A DNA stretch of 64,000 nt from a phage, in sequence record PX994957.1; one strand, written 5' to 3'. Below the pieces are notes generated by a model. It did not search any database. It saw only the letters and a list, made by a program, of their open reading frames with translations, and was not told the origin of the DNA. Positions 3,580 to 58,268 of the stretch are shown here, one piece after another. The translations under genes and the position numbers were made by a program. How positions within the stretch are numbered: position 1 is the stretch's first letter; every line of letters starts with the position of its first letter.

Positions 3580-3655
3580 TGGTCGAGGCAGTAGGGATCG
3601 AACCTACGACCTAGGACTTAGAAGGTCCTTGCTCTTCCTTCTGAGCTATGCCCCG
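3580..3655 (-). tRNA. tRNA-Arg (anticodon UCU)
   Basis: hand-folded cloverleaf: acceptor CGGGGCA/TGCCTCG, anticodon loop CTTCTAA, T-loop TTCGATC, encoded CCA. Confidence 0.85.
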
Positions 3656-3659
3656 TAAT

Positions 3660-3735
3660 TGGGGTGACCGATGGGAGTCGAACCCATGACTACGAGAATC
3701 ACAATCTCGAGTTCTACCAACTGAACTACGGCCAC
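3660..3735 (-). tRNA. tRNA-His-like (anticodon GUG), no encoded G-1
   Basis: cloverleaf: acceptor GTGGCCG/CGGTCAC, discriminator C73, anticodon loop TTGTGAT, T-loop TTCGACT, CCA encoded; nucleotide -1 is U. Confidence 0.6.
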
Positions 3736-3849
3736 ATTAATACCTACTCCAACAATCAAGATGTCTTCACACGAAATTAAGAGAAGAGTGATCAGTTCAA
3801 CCCCTATAATCGCGTCAAGTAGATATTAATGTGACAGTTGTCACAAATT

Positions 3850-3924
3850 TGGCGGACGTGATAGGATTCGAACCTATAACCAATCGCTTAACAGGCGATC
3901 GCTCTGCCATTGAGCTACACATCC
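3850..3924 (-). tRNA. tRNA-Asn (anticodon GUU)
   Basis: cloverleaf: acceptor GGATGTG/CACGTCC, anticodon loop CTGTTAA, T-loop TTCGAAT, CCA encoded. Confidence 0.8.
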
Positions 3925-3928
3925 AAAT

Positions 3929-4015
3929 TGGTGGGGAGTGGTGGAGTCGAACCACCCGAGTCGCAATGACAATGAATTTACAGTCCACACCGCTACCTCT
4001 ACGGGATAACTCCCC
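3929..4015 (-). tRNA. tRNA-Tyr (anticodon GUA), long variable arm
   Basis: acceptor GGGGAGT/ACTCCCC, anticodon loop CTGTAAA, type II variable arm, T-loop TTCGACT, CCA encoded. Confidence 0.75.
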
Positions 4016-4027
4016 TAATTCATAATT

Positions 4028-4102
4028 TGGTGGCCCTGGGTGGAATTGAACCACCATCTGGCGATTATGAGTCGCTTGCTTGAACCTTCCAGCTACAGGG
4101 CC
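4028..4102 (-). tRNA. tRNA with CAU anticodon (Ile2 or Met)
   Basis: acceptor GGCCCTG/CAGGGCC, anticodon loop CTCATAA, T-loop TTCAATT; Ile vs Met cannot be decided from sequence alone. Confidence 0.7.
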
Positions 4103-4103
4103 T

Positions 4104-4179
4104 TGGTGCTGATTGACGGAATCGAACCGCCGACGTCCTCATTACAAGTGAGGTGCTCTACCTACTGAGCTAAATCAGC
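4104..4179 (-). tRNA. tRNA-Thr (anticodon UGU)
   Basis: acceptor GCTGATT/AATCAGC, anticodon loop CTTGTAA, T-loop TTCGATT, CCA encoded. Confidence 0.85.
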
Positions 4180-4185
4180 AAAAAC

Positions 4186-4275
4186 TGGCGGAGGCGATAG
4201 GATTTGAACCTATGAGTCGCCGGAGCGACTGCCGGTTTTCAAGACCGGTGCATTAAACCACTCTGCCACGCCTCC
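4186..4275 (-). tRNA. tRNA-Ser (anticodon UGA), long variable arm
   Basis: acceptor GGAGGCG/CGCCTCC, anticodon stem-loop CCGGT-CTTGAAA-ACCGG, T-loop TTCAAAT. Confidence 0.85.
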
Positions 4276-4281
4276 AAATAT

Positions 4282-4932
4282 TTATATATTGTTAATTTGA
4301 TTTAGAATTCTTTTTGCTTGAGTATGACTTACGCCAATATGCTTAGCATATTTAGATAATTCACCACGCTTAGAAAAATCATATAATTTAGAAATTTCTA
4401 TTCTTCTTTTTCTTTCATCCGCAGAAACTTTTGCTTCGTTTGCTTTTGCTATTTTACGTTTAGCTTCTTGAGAATGAGTTTTACCAGCAAATCCATTCTT
4501 CATTAATCCATTTGAAGACCATCCTTTTAATTTTCCGTTAGAATGTGCCTTTTTAACACCCAATGAAATTAATTCGCGTTGCTGATCTGTCATAGGATAA
4601 TTATTTATATGGTCCCATCCACCTTCACCTCCAAGTTTTAAATTATACACATCTGGTCTATTTAAAAACTCTTCTGTGACAATATTTTTCTCAGCTTCAA
4701 GCATAGATTCTTTATCATCAAAATACTCTAATATTTCTTTAGAAAAATTTTCTATACCATATTTATCTTGGGCTCTTTTTAATAATTTACCAGAACCCAT
4801 ATATCCATCATCTAAATTTTCGGTAGAATGCACACCAATATAAATTTTATTATTAATTTTATTTGTTATTTTATAAAGATAAAAATGCATATCAGTCCCT
4901 AATAAAGAACTGAGCGTCTCACGACGAGTCAT
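4282..4932 (-). CDS. segB: GIY-YIG homing endonuclease (SegB-like) within the tRNA cluster
   Basis: 216 aa; N-terminal GIY-YIG motifs (YLYKITNKINNKIYIGV ... YMGSG); basic C-terminal DNA-binding-like tail; true start may be internal Met at 4890. Confidence 0.8.
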   Translation of the reverse strand: MTRRETLSSLLGTDMHFYLYKITNKINNKIYIGVHSTENLDDGYMGSGKLLKRAQDKYGIENFSKEILEYFDDKESMLEAEKNIVTEEFLNRPDVYNLKLGGEGGWDHINNYPMTDQQRELISLGVKKAHSNGKLKGWSSNGLMKNGFAGKTHSQEAKRKIAKANEAKVSADERKRRIEISKLYDFSKRGELSKYAKHIGVSHTQAKRILNQINNI

Positions 4933-4936
4933 AAAT

Positions 4937-5010
<74 letters not shown>

Positions 5011-5015
5011 AAATT

Positions 5016-5102
5016 TGGTGCGAGAAGTGGGACTCGAACCCACAAGGAAATCATTCCGCAGCATTTTAAGTGCTGTGCCTTTACCAATTTGACCATTCTC
5101 GC
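5016..5102 (-). tRNA. tRNA-Leu (anticodon UAA), long variable arm
   Basis: acceptor GCGAGAA/TTCTCGC, anticodon loop CTTAAAA, T-loop TTCGAGT. Confidence 0.85.
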
Positions 5103-5103
5103 G

Positions 5104-5176
5104 CTGGGAATAAAGGACTCGAACCTTTGCATCTAGCAGTCAAAGTGCTATGCCTTACCAACTTGACTAATTCCCA
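5104..5176 (-). tRNA. tRNA-Gln (anticodon UUG), CCA not encoded
   Basis: acceptor TGGGAAT/ATTCCCA, anticodon loop CTTTGAC, T-loop TTCGAGT. Confidence 0.8.
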
Positions 5177-53494: not shown

Positions 53495-53522
53495 ATGGGG
53501 ACCGAAAGGTCCCCATGTTTTT
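53495..53522 (+). terminator. rho-independent terminator after gene 54
   Basis: hairpin atggggacc-gaaa-ggtccccat followed by TTTTTATTT. Confidence 0.7.
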
Positions 53523-53811
53523 ATTTACGGAATGAAATAAAAGCAGCAACTGAAGCAACAGAGGTTTCTTCAATATAAACCTCAATTTTTACCGGAGCTT
53601 CTGACTCAAATTTACCTGTTACTACACCTTGGAAAATACTTTCAGTCTGTTCTGGCTTTGAAAAATTTTCAGAAGGAAAAATTCCAAACTTTTTATCGGT
53701 TCCGAAAATTTTAATAAATTCATCGTAAACTGCTTCATTAAAAGCATTATCAGCAGGAATAACGCCTTCAACTACAAGTTCTTGACCTAAAAAGCGCAAA
53801 GAAGATTTCAT
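53521..53811 (-). CDS. hypothetical protein downstream of alt
   Basis: 96 aa ORF. Confidence 0.5.
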   Translation of the reverse strand: MKSSLRFLGQELVVEGVIPADNAFNEAVYDEFIKIFGTDKKFGIFPSENFSKPEQTESIFQGVVTGKFESEAPVKIEVYIEETSVASVAAFISFRK

Positions 53812-53871
53812 TTTGTGTTCCTCATGTTATGTCAGTAAGACTACTATAACACAACACGAGGGACTTGTAAA

Positions 53872-55929
53872 CTACATTTTGAACTTTTTAGACATTCCGT
53901 TAATGTTAACCAAAGAAGCTAAGATTTGAGAAACTTCGTTTTCCTCTTCTTTTGATTCTTCTACAAGGAATTGATTAAATCCAGCCATTGGACGAACTTC
54001 ACCAGTTTCCATTAGATGGTCGCCATCATATACTGATTCTTCTAATTGTTCAGAAGGAGGAACGATTGTACCTTCGATTAGATACTTGTTATAAGCAGTT
54101 TCTTTCATAAAGTAAGTACTTACTTTATTAATCTTCAGTAAAATTCCACGTGGTAGAATAACTTCAGCTTCTGATGGAAATCCTGATAAATGACCCGGAA
54201 CGATAACTTTAACTCGTTCAGCTCCTTTAATTACCATACCCACGCTAGTTTCAGCATCTTCATTAGCATATGTAGAATGACTACCCATATGCATCAAATC
54301 TTCTGCATCAACGGAACCTTCTCCTTCACCAGAAAATACTGCTCCGGAATCATCTAAGGCCATATAATTTTTACCATACTCACCAAAGATATTTGGTTTA
54401 AGTGATGTAGATACGAAGTTCTTGAAATAGAACATTTTATTTTCAATGTTATGACGCAAAGTTTTAAAAGTAACTTCTTGTCCACGGTAAAGTGTAGTTC
54501 CTGGAGGAAGAACTGAACCTTTAGCAAACGCAGAATCCATAGTCTCGATGTGCTTAATAGCGCGCTCCATGTATTCTTCACGTGTAGAATCAGGTTTACC
54601 TAAAAGGAATGAGTTCATTTCAACATACGAATCTGCACAATAATCTTCAATTACATCAGATTCAGCCTGAGTCAATCCTTTTGGAGTTACTTCAGTGCTT
54701 GCATATTCATACGCCTGAGCAGCGGATTCATCAATTAATTTATAAATGCCATTCATGACAAATTGAATAATAGCTGTCTTTTCATCTGGCGTAGCTTTAG
54801 AACCTTTAACTAAATCATTGACAATTTTCTTAATAACATCAAAGCTATTAGAAATATTAATGTCAGCAAGATCGCTTAAAATTTTATCAGTTTTATAATC
54901 AAAAAATTCTTTATTCTTTAAATATTCTTGAGAACTTTGATATGTTATATCGCTCTGCAACTTGATAGATGGATCACGTAAACGTGCATGGGCTAATGCA
55001 ATATGATTTCGGAAGCTTTCTAGTTCATAATCACTAGATTTAAAACGAGAAGCACTCCTCATACCACCGATAGCTCCTTTGCCGAAGTTTGAACCAATCT
55101 GAATAACGCCAGAGTTCATTGGTCCTTCTGCTTTATATACCGGAACTTTAGATTCAAACTCTTGATATTTCTTAGCAGCAAAGCTATCACCCTGAAGTGA
55201 AGCATCAACAGTAGAATATTGAGCTTGTGCTGCTAATCGACGACTAATTTTAGTTTTCTGAATAACAGCTTGATCCGTACGCTTATCATTTTCTAAAGCA
55301 ATAGAAGCAGCAACTGCGACAGCTTTAGGAACAGCATTACCTGTTTTAACGTCTACATAAACATCACCGACTTTCGATTCAACTTTTGTGAATAACTCAG
55401 TTGAAATAGGAGGTACACCTGGAATGTCTTCTAAATTGGCATTTTTACGGTAAACCATAATATATGCATATTTCTTATCATAGTCCCAGATTTCCTTTAA
55501 AAGAACATATCGACCTGCTCCTTTAGTACGTACTAAACGGTCAGCAATAACTTGCATTTGACGAGCAGCGCCATTTGTTTTACTTTTTAGTACGCGGAAT
55601 AGGCATGCATCAATTTTATACTGTTTCATTGTTTGAAGAGCAGTATCAAAAACAGCATTAATGACGCCAATTGGATTTCCACCCAAGTTTTTAAGCTTAA
55701 CTAATGATAATTTTTCATTAACACCTATCATTACGATATGCATCATTTTGTCGCCTGGCTTAACGTTTTTATTCGTATCACCGCCAGAGGTGTATGTACA
55801 AAATCTAAATCCAGGAAGCACGCTTTCTTCACCGGCTTGAATAGCAAAAATTTGTGGTATTTTATGCTTAGGATTTAAGTTAACAACCGGCGCCGAAGCG
55901 CCGTCAAATAATTCTGTAATAAGTTCCAT
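53872..55929 (-). CDS. Alt-like ADP-ribosyltransferase, paralog 2
   Basis: 685 aa; shares N-terminus MELITELFD... and catalytic motifs with adjacent gene: R (LYRGQ), STSL, SEAEVILPRG. Confidence 0.8.
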   Translation of the reverse strand: MELITELFDGASAPVVNLNPKHKIPQIFAIQAGEESVLPGFRFCTYTSGGDTNKNVKPGDKMMHIVMIGVNEKLSLVKLKNLGGNPIGVINAVFDTALQTMKQYKIDACLFRVLKSKTNGAARQMQVIADRLVRTKGAGRYVLLKEIWDYDKKYAYIMVYRKNANLEDIPGVPPISTELFTKVESKVGDVYVDVKTGNAVPKAVAVAASIALENDKRTDQAVIQKTKISRRLAAQAQYSTVDASLQGDSFAAKKYQEFESKVPVYKAEGPMNSGVIQIGSNFGKGAIGGMRSASRFKSSDYELESFRNHIALAHARLRDPSIKLQSDITYQSSQEYLKNKEFFDYKTDKILSDLADINISNSFDVIKKIVNDLVKGSKATPDEKTAIIQFVMNGIYKLIDESAAQAYEYASTEVTPKGLTQAESDVIEDYCADSYVEMNSFLLGKPDSTREEYMERAIKHIETMDSAFAKGSVLPPGTTLYRGQEVTFKTLRHNIENKMFYFKNFVSTSLKPNIFGEYGKNYMALDDSGAVFSGEGEGSVDAEDLMHMGSHSTYANEDAETSVGMVIKGAERVKVIVPGHLSGFPSEAEVILPRGILLKINKVSTYFMKETAYNKYLIEGTIVPPSEQLEESVYDGDHLMETGEVRPMAGFNQFLVEESKEEENEVSQILASLVNINGMSKKFKM

Positions 55930-55932
55930 GAT

Positions 55933-58026
55933 TTATCCTTGAACGAACTTGTAAGGCATGTTTGTAATATCTATGCAAGACGCAATAATTCCAAGAGATG
56001 ATTCTACTTTCTGTTTAATATTTGATGAAACAAATGATGCAAAGTCAACTCTGTCTTCTATTTCAATATCACCTGTCATTGCAACCAATTCACCAGTTTC
56101 CATTAAATGGTCTCCATCATAGATTACCGATTCGGTGAGCTCTTCCGTGGTCATAACTTCAGCTTGAATGAGTTTTGTATTATTAGATGTTGTTCCGTCA
56201 TTATTAGAAGCATCAGTTATTTTATTAACCTTGACCATCAATCCGCGTGGTAGAATAACTTCAGCTTCTGTTGCTATTCCGAGACTTCCTGGATATACAA
56301 CATTAACTTTATGAGCTCCATCAATTGCCCATCCTATTTGAACTTTAACATATTCAGGATTTTCTTTATACGCTCTTATTTCGTTTGGATTAATAGTTAT
56401 TCCTTCTTCATTTTTATCAACTGTTAATTCGTTACGAGCTTCTGGTTCTAAAAGACCAATACCAGCATGTGTGATTCCAAAACGTCCAAAAATGATAGGA
56501 GTTAAAGAAGTAGATACAAAATTTCTGAAGTAGAACACTTTATTTTTAACTAACGCTTCATATATAGGAGCAGTCATACTTTGAGCACGATAAACTGTAA
56601 TGCCTTCTGGTATACGGTCACCATTTTCAAAAGCTGAATCTAAGTTATTTATAGCAGATTCAATTTCTTTTTCACTCATTACATCGTATCGTTCTGGATT
56701 GTAACGACCTAAAAGAAGATTATTGATGTCAGTATATCCTGAACCGCAATATTCTCTAATGCCACGCTTTTGTGATGGAGTATATTTAGAACCATCGCGG
56801 GCAATAGTAATATCAATCATTGGACCAGCACCAATTCCAGAAAAACTGTAAATCATTCGTTTGAGGAATTTAGTTTTTGCTGCGTTCCAGGAATTTTTAG
56901 TTATTTCTTCCCAGACTTCATCTGGTTGTCCTTTACGATTTTTATTATGATTAGCAAGCCATTTATCTTTATAATCTTCAAAGAATTGATTTACAGCTGC
57001 TGCGTATTTCTCTAAACATTTTATTGAAGTAGTTGGTTCATTTTTAATTGCATTAAAAATTACTTCTTTAATTTTTTCTGAAACTTCACCGACTTGACTC
57101 ATTGGAAAGAATTTATAATCATAGTGAAGTTCATCTGCCGTTCCTTCAGCAATAATTTTTGCTGCCTTTGTTTTAGAAGCTAATGAATTAATTCCAATTT
57201 TCATTTCTTCTGCTTCGGGAATTAAAGGTGCAGTAGCTGGTTTATTAAAATTAGCTGCTGTAGATTCATACTTCTGGAATAATTCACTTTCAAATCTAGA
57301 AGATTCCAATGACTGACTTTGTGCAATTGCTCTACGGGAAATTTTAACTTTAACGATTACGGCTTGGTCAGAACGTTTATCATTTTCTTGTGCAATAGAT
57401 GCAGCAATTGCCTCATTTTTGGTTACTTGAGCTCCAGTATCTTTATTGATATAAACATCACCGACCTTCGATTCAACTTTAGTAAAAAGCTCGGTGCTAA
57501 TTTCTGGAACTCCTGGAATGTCTTCTAGTGATACATTTTTACGATGTATAAGAATATATGCATACTTTTTATCGTAATCCCAGAGTTCCTTAAGAAGGAC
57601 GTATCTGCCACCTGAACGACTGCGGATGAGTCTATCAGCAATAAGTTGAATTTGTCGAGCTTGACCGGCGGTTTTAGACTTAAGAATACGAAGCATGCAG
57701 GCATCAATTTTATATTGACGCATTGTTTGCATTGCAACAGTAAAAACTGAATTGATATAATTAATCGGGCTTGGACCAAGACCTTTTAATTTAGCAATTG
57801 AACCTTTAGCAGTTAATGTAAAAGGAACAATGTGCATCATTTTATCGCCCATCTTTAAATCACGATTAGTATCACCTCCAGATGTATAGGTACATAAACG
57901 AAAGCCTGGTTGTTCAATTGCATCATCAACATGAACTGAAAAAATTTGTGGTATTTTCTTCTTTGGATTTAAGTTTGTAATCGGAAGAGTAGTATCTTCG
58001 TCAAATAATTCTGTAATAAGTTCCAT
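55933..58026 (-). CDS. alt: Alt ADP-ribosyltransferase (packaged internal head protein)
   Basis: 697 aa; R-S-E motifs VYRAQ, FVSTSL, TEAEVILPRG; position upstream of gene 30. Confidence 0.85.
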   Translation of the reverse strand: MELITELFDEDTTLPITNLNPKKKIPQIFSVHVDDAIEQPGFRLCTYTSGGDTNRDLKMGDKMMHIVPFTLTAKGSIAKLKGLGPSPINYINSVFTVAMQTMRQYKIDACMLRILKSKTAGQARQIQLIADRLIRSRSGGRYVLLKELWDYDKKYAYILIHRKNVSLEDIPGVPEISTELFTKVESKVGDVYINKDTGAQVTKNEAIAASIAQENDKRSDQAVIVKVKISRRAIAQSQSLESSRFESELFQKYESTAANFNKPATAPLIPEAEEMKIGINSLASKTKAAKIIAEGTADELHYDYKFFPMSQVGEVSEKIKEVIFNAIKNEPTTSIKCLEKYAAAVNQFFEDYKDKWLANHNKNRKGQPDEVWEEITKNSWNAAKTKFLKRMIYSFSGIGAGPMIDITIARDGSKYTPSQKRGIREYCGSGYTDINNLLLGRYNPERYDVMSEKEIESAINNLDSAFENGDRIPEGITVYRAQSMTAPIYEALVKNKVFYFRNFVSTSLTPIIFGRFGITHAGIGLLEPEARNELTVDKNEEGITINPNEIRAYKENPEYVKVQIGWAIDGAHKVNVVYPGSLGIATEAEVILPRGLMVKVNKITDASNNDGTTSNNTKLIQAEVMTTEELTESVIYDGDHLMETGELVAMTGDIEIEDRVDFASFVSSNIKQKVESSLGIIASCIDITNMPYKFVQG

Positions 58027-58082
58027 GTTATCCTCTCTAGTGTTTATTCTATTTATAAAATTAAAGGCCCGAAGGCCTTTAA

Positions 58083-58268
58083 TTAATAGAGAGCTAAAAG
58101 AGTACGATATACTTCAAACTTTGGACCTTTTTCATATGGATCAAATCTTTCCGTGAATTCATCATATGCTAGTTTATCTGGGAATTCAAGAATAACCTGC
58201 GATACCGCAGTGGAAACATCTCCACCTTCTTTTTGAGCCACGACAATTGTTTCTAAGTAAGCTTTCAT
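58083..58268 (-). CDS. hypothetical small protein
   Basis: 61 aa ORF between alt and gene 30, 4-nt overlap with ligase stop. Confidence 0.45.
   Translation of the reverse strand: MKAYLETIVVAQKEGGDVSTAVSQVILEFPDKLAYDEFTERFDPYEKGPKFEVYRTLLALY

Follow-up and report, generated by a model that had tools for sequence, protein, structure and literature searches.

Two tandem full-length Alt-family ADP-ribosyltransferase genes at the alt locus of a Tequatrovirus and their relation to the alt.-1 and alt.-2 open reading frames of T4

The tandem alt locus and its two gene products

A 64,000-nucleotide stretch of phage DNA (record PX994957.1; hereafter the window) carries, at positions 53,872 to 58,026, two adjacent minus-strand genes encoding Alt-family ADP-ribosyltransferases (ARTs) of 697 and 685 amino acids, here termed copy A and copy B (Table 1). 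Both open reading frames (ORFs) lie exactly where the first-pass annotation had placed them, and they are separated by a gap of 3 nucleotides in the ORF listing of the window. As judged from sequence matches, the window is Tequatrovirus DNA: the 5-kb stretch spanning A and B matched 548 phage records, among them Escherichia phage vB_EcoM-Sa45lw (species Tequatrovirus sf23) at 99.7% identity and Shigella phage Sf23 at 99.1%. The pair is not an assembly artefact, because the arrangement recurs in hundreds of independent genome records. The gene order, gene 30 - alt.1 - alt - alt paralog (B) - alt.-3 - gene 54, conserves the position of alt known from the T4 reference (54 / alt.-3 / alt.-2 / alt.-1 / alt / alt.1 / 30), and the feature is an ordinary T-even/Tequatrovirus alt locus. 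It runs antiparallel to the baseplate genes, with homologues of T4 genes 29, 48, and 54 on the plus strand and of alt.-3, alt.1, 30, and 30.1 on the minus strand; the alt.1 and alt.-3 products matched Phage_blade and DUF5498, respectively.

Alignment by BLASTP revealed 41% identity between A and B over the full length (E = 4e-164), unevenly distributed along the proteins. The N-terminal domains are about 68% identical (profile-profile probability 100%, E 6e-93) and the ART domains about 34-40% identical (probability 100%, E 1e-42), whereas no homology between the ~175-residue middle regions (residues 241-415 of B) was detected by profile-profile comparison (probability 0.7%). The first-pass annotation had described shared termini around a divergent centre, and this description is accurate, with MELITELFD, PQIF, CTYTSGGDTN, KMMHIV, YRAQ/YRGQ, FVSTSL, and EAEVILPRG all found. 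Both proteins matched PF03496 (ADPrib_exo_Tox) above its Pfam gathering threshold of 23.4 bits (A, 129.9 bits, E 9.6e-38; B, 71.5 bits, E 7.7e-20), as well as phrog_802, "Alt-like RNA polymerase ADP-ribosyltransferase", over residues 1-696 of A (E 1e-272) and 1-685 of B (E 3e-256). In addition, PF26846 (Tevenvirinae_ADPRT) is a precomputed annotation on all homologues, while an NCBIfam scan of A and B matched no family. An exhaustive phmmer search with the middle of B against 1.84 billion representative proteins returned zero matches, a weak negative as its own family was unrepresented there too, and so yielded no hint of what this region does.

In the structural models, A and B are built from the same parts in the same order. 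A short N-terminal helix opens the chain, followed by an alpha/beta domain (about 12-225) whose secondary-structure pattern is identical in the two copies. A linker modelled with low confidence (about 228-246) leads to the all-helical middle, which extends to about 410-415 and passes directly into the helical N-terminal portion of the ART domain; the beta-rich ART core and a low-confidence C-terminal tail complete the order. A and B are Alt-family ARTs with a predicted C3/VIP2-like ART fold, in which a helical N-terminal part precedes a split beta-sandwich core.

The catalytic residues were retained in both copies, in line with the earlier reading that the R-S-E motifs are intact: the R, S-T-S, and E-x-E residues are kept with no catalytic loss on alignment, and an alignment of 19 sequences drawn from both lineages and several genera shows no variation at R482, Q484, S507, S509, E587, or E589 (B numbering). 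A search of the PDB with the single B sequence gave no match, and a profile search with the 19-sequence alignment retrieved R-S-E class toxins only, i.e., 4xsg (C3-like ART), Clostridium perfringens component a, Certhrax, Vis, and CdtA. The YR-Q of the family aligned on the catalytic Arg of these toxins (YRG in 4xsg and 5h03) and EAEVILPR on their (Q/E)-x-E motif of the ADP-ribosylating turn-turn (ARTT) loop, with the ARTT region of B aligning on AYPGQYELLLPR of 4xsg and EYEVL of 5h03 (C. perfringens binary enterotoxin component a). Like the Alt family, Vis, C3bot, Certhrax, CDTa/iota-like toxins, and VIP2 belong to the R-S-E class, but these toxins are secreted by bacteria, use other delivery modules, and show only 15-25% sequence identity.

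All B-type sequences keep an aromatic residue at the fifth position ahead of the first Glu of the ARTT motif (SGFPSEAE, SEYPEEAE, and similar). This residue aligned with the AYPGQYE Tyr of the C3-like enzyme 4xsg, and A-type sequences are without it (LGIATEAE, APSNEME). In C3-like toxins, the ARTT turn-1 aromatic contributes to substrate recognition. The difference between A- and B-type loops may accordingly be treated as a lead on specificity. As E-x-E is the motif of arginine-specific ARTs (PMC8120803), A and B are both predicted to be arginine ADP-ribosyltransferases. The targets described for T4 Alt are RNA polymerase alpha (Arg265), MazF (Arg84), and EF-Tu, among about 27 proteins in total (PMC2988021, PMC8120803).

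The divergence of the two copies points to an old origin. In the homologous 5' third, A and B share 61-73% of nucleotides and only 40-62% of third positions, indicating an old duplication without recent homogenisation; recent A/B gene conversion in this genome can be ruled out for the shared N-terminal part on the same grounds. Moreover, the B-type middle also occurs in JS10/JS98- and KM16-like phages, and the B lineage is therefore older than the genus.

Table 1. Coordinates of the alt locus features in the window (a slash within a motif marks the predicted cleavage point)
Feature	Position	Strand	Basis or remark
Copy A, alt orthologue, 697 amino acids	55933..58026	-	ORF; T2/T6-type allele of middle+ART cassette
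Copy B, full-length alt paralog, 685 amino acids	53872..55929	-	ORF; "alt.-2" in RB51/ime09
A catalytic Arg motif VYRAQS (R480)	56578..56595	-	Invariant alignment column
A FVSTSL (S-T-S motif)	56503..56520	-	Alignment
A ARTT region ATEAEVILPRGL (E587-x-E589)	56239..56274	-	Alignment
B catalytic Arg motif LYRGQE (R482)	54475..54492	-	Invariant column; aligns on catalytic Arg of 4xsg
B FVSTSL (S507-T-S509)	54400..54417	-	Alignment
B ARTT region GFPSEAEVILPRGI (E587-x-E589; aromatic F five residues before first Glu)	54142..54183	-	Alignment
A-specific all-helical middle, residues 241-410	56797..57306	-	31-33% identical to T4/sb2-type allele
B-specific all-helical middle, residues 241-415	54685..55209	-	No homology to middle of A; helical in model
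A N-terminal propeptide region MELITE/LFDE, gp21 motif ITE-6	57997..58026	-	Sequence
B N-terminal propeptide region MELITE/LFDG, gp21 motif ITE-6	55900..55929	-	Sequence
A C-terminal gp21 motif EELTE/SVIYDGDH (LTE-632)	56107..56145	-	Equivalent to T4 Alt LTE-619
B aligned C-terminal motif EQLEE/SVYDGDHLM (LEE-631)	54010..54051	-	Still fits L-x-E
T4-type late promoter TATAAATA, 24 nucleotides upstream of A start codon	58050..58057	-	Exact consensus match; promoter function inferred
G+C-rich hairpin aaaggcc-ttcg-ggccttt then aatttt, terminator-like	58063..58080	-	Between alt.1 homologue and late promoter; sequence-level inference
Shine-Dalgarno-like GAGAGGA for A	58031..58037	-	Sequence
AGGA ribosome-binding site for B	55936..55939	-	Overlaps last sense codons of A; A stop codon 55933-55935
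Upstream CTAAAAAGT copy, B nucleotides 340-348	55582..55590	-	Left edge of T4-type deletion
Downstream CTAAAAAGT copy, B nucleotides 2039-2047	53883..53891	-	Right edge of T4-type deletion
A5 run, B nucleotides 160-164	55766..55770	-	One A lost in T4; frameshift separating alt.-1 from alt.-2
alt.1 homologue, 61 amino acids, PF24647 "Phage_blade"	58083-58268	-	Pfam match, E 7e-28
alt.-3 homologue, 96 amino acids, DUF5498	53521-53811	-	Directly downstream of B
alt.-3 early-type promoter-like site TTTACA-17-TATAGT with TG	53843-53871	-	Sequence
Bidirectional hairpin terminator common to alt.-3 homologue and gene 54	53495-53516		Sequence

Expression and processing signals

The late promoter sequence TATAAATA ahead of A is a motif enriched in the window, with 26 occurrences found against 9.2 expected. 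The terminator-like hairpin that precedes it was missed by a stricter terminator scan with a T-run criterion. No late promoter lies within the 3-nucleotide gap between the two genes, and the close spacing of the A stop and the B start suggests co-transcription and possibly coupled translation, so that one late transcript for A and B is probably the simplest reading.

In T4, Alt belongs to the prohead core, where about 40 copies of it are present, and it enters the host together with the phage DNA. Its 68.2-kDa mature form arises through cleavage by gp21 (PMC9026906, PMC5694885), the prohead protease, which cuts at ITE-6 and LTE-619 (Ali et al. 2017, PMC5694885). The (L/I)-x-E pattern of this protease was found at both ends of A and B, and cleavage there is predicted to leave mature proteins of 70.1 kDa (A) and 69.1 kDa (B). 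Furthermore, pLDDT (predicted local distance difference test) values in the B model fall below 50 for residues 629-672, a low-confidence tail that starts at the LEE-631 motif. On the strength of the shared processing motifs and the putative late co-expression with Alt, B is taken to be packaged in the capsid and injected as Alt is, which we consider likely.

As a separate observation, the first 28 nucleotides of A and B are identical (ATGGAACTTATTACAGAATTATTTGACG; 57999-58026 and 55902-55929, both on the minus strand), which suggests either a nucleotide-level constraint, from translation initiation or the propeptide, or micro-conversion.

Copies A and B in T4 and other phages

Copy B, which is 41% identical to T4 Alt, occupies the site at which T4 has the small ORFs alt.-1 (61 amino acids) and alt.-2 (67 amino acids; NP_049810 and NP_049809 for the two). 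The T4 stretch aligned to B at 96-97% nucleotide identity over B nucleotides 1-339 and 2039-2230 (the last codons and the 3' flank), while nucleotides 340-2038 (1,699 nucleotides) are missing, with the junction falling in a 9-nucleotide direct repeat, CTAAAAAGT. Moreover, the PHROG families of the T4 fragments (phrog_23015/15247) match B residues 1-56 and 62-117 more strongly than they match A. Given the collinearity and the jump at CTAAAAAGT, T4 alt.-1/alt.-2 are the remnant of a full-length paralog; they share the locus and sequence of B, but owing to the deletion and a frameshift they encode no ART domain, whereas the window gene is complete. Neither a failure of B to align with alt.-1/alt.-2 nor a loss of R, S-T-S, or E-x-E, either of which would speak against this identity of B, was seen. 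The T4 GenBank notes describe alt.-1/alt.-2 as an "old duplication of the first part of gene alt", which on these data would be better worded as a remnant of a full-length paralog. The first-pass annotation had doubted whether a second copy is standard in T4; its single full-length alt stands, to which the remnant of B is to be added. The T4-type junction was present in a single uninterrupted match in at least 60 records, mostly from independent isolates, ruling out the loss of B as a laboratory artefact of T4.

Outside T4, the B segment missing there was present in 402 phage records (at least 80% coverage, 94-99.9% nucleotide identity), T2, T6, RB51, RB27, and RB10 included, and a translated search recovered B at 80% amino-acid identity or above in 403 records, nearly all with two Alt-family places each. 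Both ORFs were intact in all seven further loci inspected (T2, T6, ime09, sb2, PEC04, RB51, and Yersinia phage fD1), and the 5' part of B without its body was found in about 90 records (502 vs 412 records). About three quarters of the relatives sequenced so far retain an intact B, and in T4 and roughly one fifth of relatives it is reduced to fragments.

The tandem Alt pair is already known and is no discovery, since it has been annotated in hundreds of genomes and its paralogy was noted in 2006; the novelty implied by the first-pass annotation therefore falls away, the pair being the majority state in Tequatrovirus and labelled as two Alt-like enzymes in many records. Depositors have named it "Alt-like RNA polymerase ADP-ribosyltransferase (x2)", "alt_1/alt_2", or, for B in RB51 and ime09, "alt.-2", and the labels in JS98 and SP18, which belong to another genus, are "altb" and "alta", respectively. 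The RB51/ime09 "alt.-2" is orthologous to B in the window (about 94-98% nucleotide identity) and stands in tandem next to alt. JS98 "altb", SP18 "alta", and 44RR ORF187c are likewise tandem full-length Alt paralogs adjoining alt, although identity to B is only about 48% for the JS98-type proteins, which have a B-type middle. Nolan et al. (2006) listed T4 alt.-1/alt.-2 as a paralogous alt duplication and reported a full-length duplicate in phage 44RR (PMC1524935). No published functional study was found for the full-length duplicates of RB51/ime09, JS98, SP18, and 44RR, and Alt goes unmentioned in a 2023 review of the T4 head. In fD1 (HE956711; L011:7633-11787), both Alt-family genes (g200, g201) are annotated as "protein of unknown function"; the liquid chromatography-tandem mass spectrometry dataset of fD1 virions (PXD026812) counted many non-structural proteins as particle-associated in that preparation.

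Substitution analysis of B among seven phages gave a mean synonymous rate (dS) of 0.19 and a non-synonymous rate (dN) of 0.008 (dN/dS 0.04). By segment, dN/dS was 0.01 in the C-tail, 0.02 in the N-terminal 240 residues, 0.03 in the ART domain, and 0.08 in the middle. B is therefore being maintained under strong purifying selection.

Single Alt-family genes standing alone between alt.1 and alt.-3 homologues were also observed in two Logan assemblies, SRR24155011 (L003:5001-7055) and SRR19633722 (L004:5001-7061), where an A-type N-terminus to about residue 195 or 225 is joined to a B-type body; in P0003, the A-type stretch covers ~55 residues only. Such single chimeric genes correspond to the expected product of unequal A/B crossover, but may instead reflect assembly collapse.

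Copy A is the positional orthologue of T4 Alt (NP_049811), an internal head protein and NAD+:arginine mono-ADP-ribosyltransferase, with the same neighbours, late promoter, and ITE-6/LTE motifs. It is 71% identical to T4 Alt over the full length, reaching ~99% over residues 1-247 and ~95% over the last ~100 residues, but its middle and ART domain are only 31% and 66% identical to those of T4, as A has the T2/T6-type cassette. Across all eight phages compared, the N-terminal 240 residues and the C-tail of A are at least 94% identical, and the middle+ART part (window 56272-57285) falls into two classes, T2/T6/RB51/ime09/PEC04/window vs T4/sb2, with 31-33% amino-acid identity between them in the middle and 66-67% in the ART domain. 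The window-type variable part is the commoner class, found at 94-100% identity in 324 records (T2 alt and T6 among them), and the reference T4 Alt represents the rarer one. These classes assort independently of B, since sb2 combines a T4-type A with an intact B, and slur14 and vB_Eco_Geo combine a window-type A with the deletion; a strict linkage between T4-type A and B loss is thereby ruled out. B matches T4 Alt in domain order, catalytic residues, predicted fold, and termini, but it represents a separate paralog lineage with an unrelated middle and without a T4 protein equivalent.

Several features of the surroundings are recorded here for completeness. Mutants of T4 Alt.-3 with a C-terminal extension overcome defence by the CmdTAC system (Vassallo et al. 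2024, PMC11618068), and that study concerns alt.-3, not ARTs. One T6 RefSeq record labels the alt.1 homologue "siderophore-interacting protein", which looks like an annotation-transfer error. On the minus strand at 3580-5176, the window carries 10 transfer RNA (tRNA) genes, Arg-TCT, His, Asn, Tyr, Met-CAT, Thr, Ser, Gly, Leu, and Gln, nine of which were recovered by an Rfam scan at the gathering threshold, the Tyr gene being missed. T4 has eight tRNAs (Gln, Leu, Gly, Pro, Ser, Thr, Ile, and Arg), and the set in the window thus differs.

The possible role of copy B

A is the T4 Alt orthologue and B an old, intact tandem paralog, and, taken as a whole, the evidence makes it probable that B is a packaged and injected ART with targets of its own. 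Under this explanation, A and B would be made late from one transcript, the shared N-terminal propeptide and domain would direct both into the prohead core, and gp21 would trim them at ITE-6 and at an L-x-E site about 55-65 residues from the C-terminus. The mature proteins would then be ejected into the next host, where each may ADP-ribosylate arginines on a set of proteins determined by its own helical middle and ARTT loop. More specifically, we see an even chance that B is a second packaged, injected arginine ART whose targets are unlike those of Alt, perhaps with a defence component among them as MazF is for Alt, and that the family is a frame with swappable cassettes. The Alt family would in that case consist of a constant delivery frame (the N-terminal domain and the C-terminal propeptide) around an exchangeable effector cassette, and the genus would hold at least three such cassettes (T2/T6-type A, T4-type A, and B).

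Such an organisation looks like the logic of a capsid targeting sequence (CTS) plus variable cargo in the T-even internal proteins (PMC3012670). In T4 IPI, IPII, and IPIII, gp21 likewise removes a conserved N-terminal targeting propeptide, and the cargo that is injected diversifies (PMC3012670, PMC9026906), but these proteins are small, non-enzymes as far as described, and have a CTS of ~10 residues only, whereas the Alt family has an additional conserved N-terminal domain of ~230 residues and a C-terminal propeptide.

Several observations weigh against this explanation. T4 and about 90 records are without B, meaning that it is dispensable on at least some hosts, and a literature search found no functional or proteomic work on B (activity, targets, or virion presence). 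Structural models of both copies, built from shallow alignments of 15-19 sequences, reached moderate confidence (pLDDT 73-74). Residue 10 is G in B and E in A and T4 Alt, the C-terminal site of B is LEE, not LTE, so that cleavage there is a prediction, and a second exact TATAAATA lies inside A at 56646-56653 on the minus strand, about 720 nucleotides upstream of the B start codon, which could serve separate expression of B or be a chance match.

Alternatively, B could be a redundant back-up of Alt, packaged and injected like it, that modifies Arg265 of RNA polymerase alpha as its main target too and raises dose or robustness. Both copies have the same domain order, predicted fold, and arginine-type E-x-E motif, T4 and its roughly 90 relatives are viable after losing B, and T4 ARTs already overlap, as Alt and ModA both modify alpha Arg265 (PMC2988021). 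However, with ART domains only about 34-40% identical, unrelated middles, and an ARTT loop that differs systematically between the lineages, such redundancy seems unlikely; both lineages have, moreover, been retained together in different genera (JS98 alta/altb, 44RR), and this co-retention together with the strong constraint on B is not what would be expected of a pure duplicate.

The differences at residue 10 and at LEE, together with the lack of virion evidence for B, are also compatible with a late enzyme that acts on host or phage proteins in the producing cell and is neither packaged nor injected. A precedent exists in T4 ModA/ModB, T4-type ARTs without packaging that are R-S-E enzymes of the same clade used in host takeover (PMC5512222, PMC8120803), although these are small (~200 residues) and early, without the Tevenvirinae N-terminal domain, the helical middle, or propeptides. 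B shares with Alt an N-terminal domain of ~240 residues that is among its most constrained parts, its first 28 nucleotides, which code for MELITELFD with ITE-6, do not differ from those of A while the genes are otherwise ~65% identical, and it belongs to the same late transcription unit as a known head protein, all of which renders a role confined to the producing cell distinctly improbable. Finally, a decaying or catalytically dead B could be imagined from the clear pseudogene remnant in T4 and from the chimeric A/B genes of the two metagenomic assemblies, which imply a recombinationally unstable locus. Yet the ORF is intact in about 400 records, the catalytic residues are invariant even in B-type proteins of other genera, the Pfam score lies well above threshold, and the dN/dS ratio at the observed dS effectively refutes decay, leaving a pseudoenzyme extremely improbable.

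An injected arginine ART distinct from Alt thus remains the preferred reading of B, and in this comparison it is T4 that deviates, given that about three quarters of sequenced Tequatroviruses, T2 and T6 included, encode a second conserved Alt-type enzyme. T4 genetics has been blind to B for decades because T4 carries only a deletion remnant. If B is injected, the set of enzymes entering the cell before gene expression would be larger than in the textbook picture drawn from T4, and T2/T6-type A, T4-type A, and B on one frame, together with the natural deletions of B, would provide a comparison for how ARTs choose their targets.

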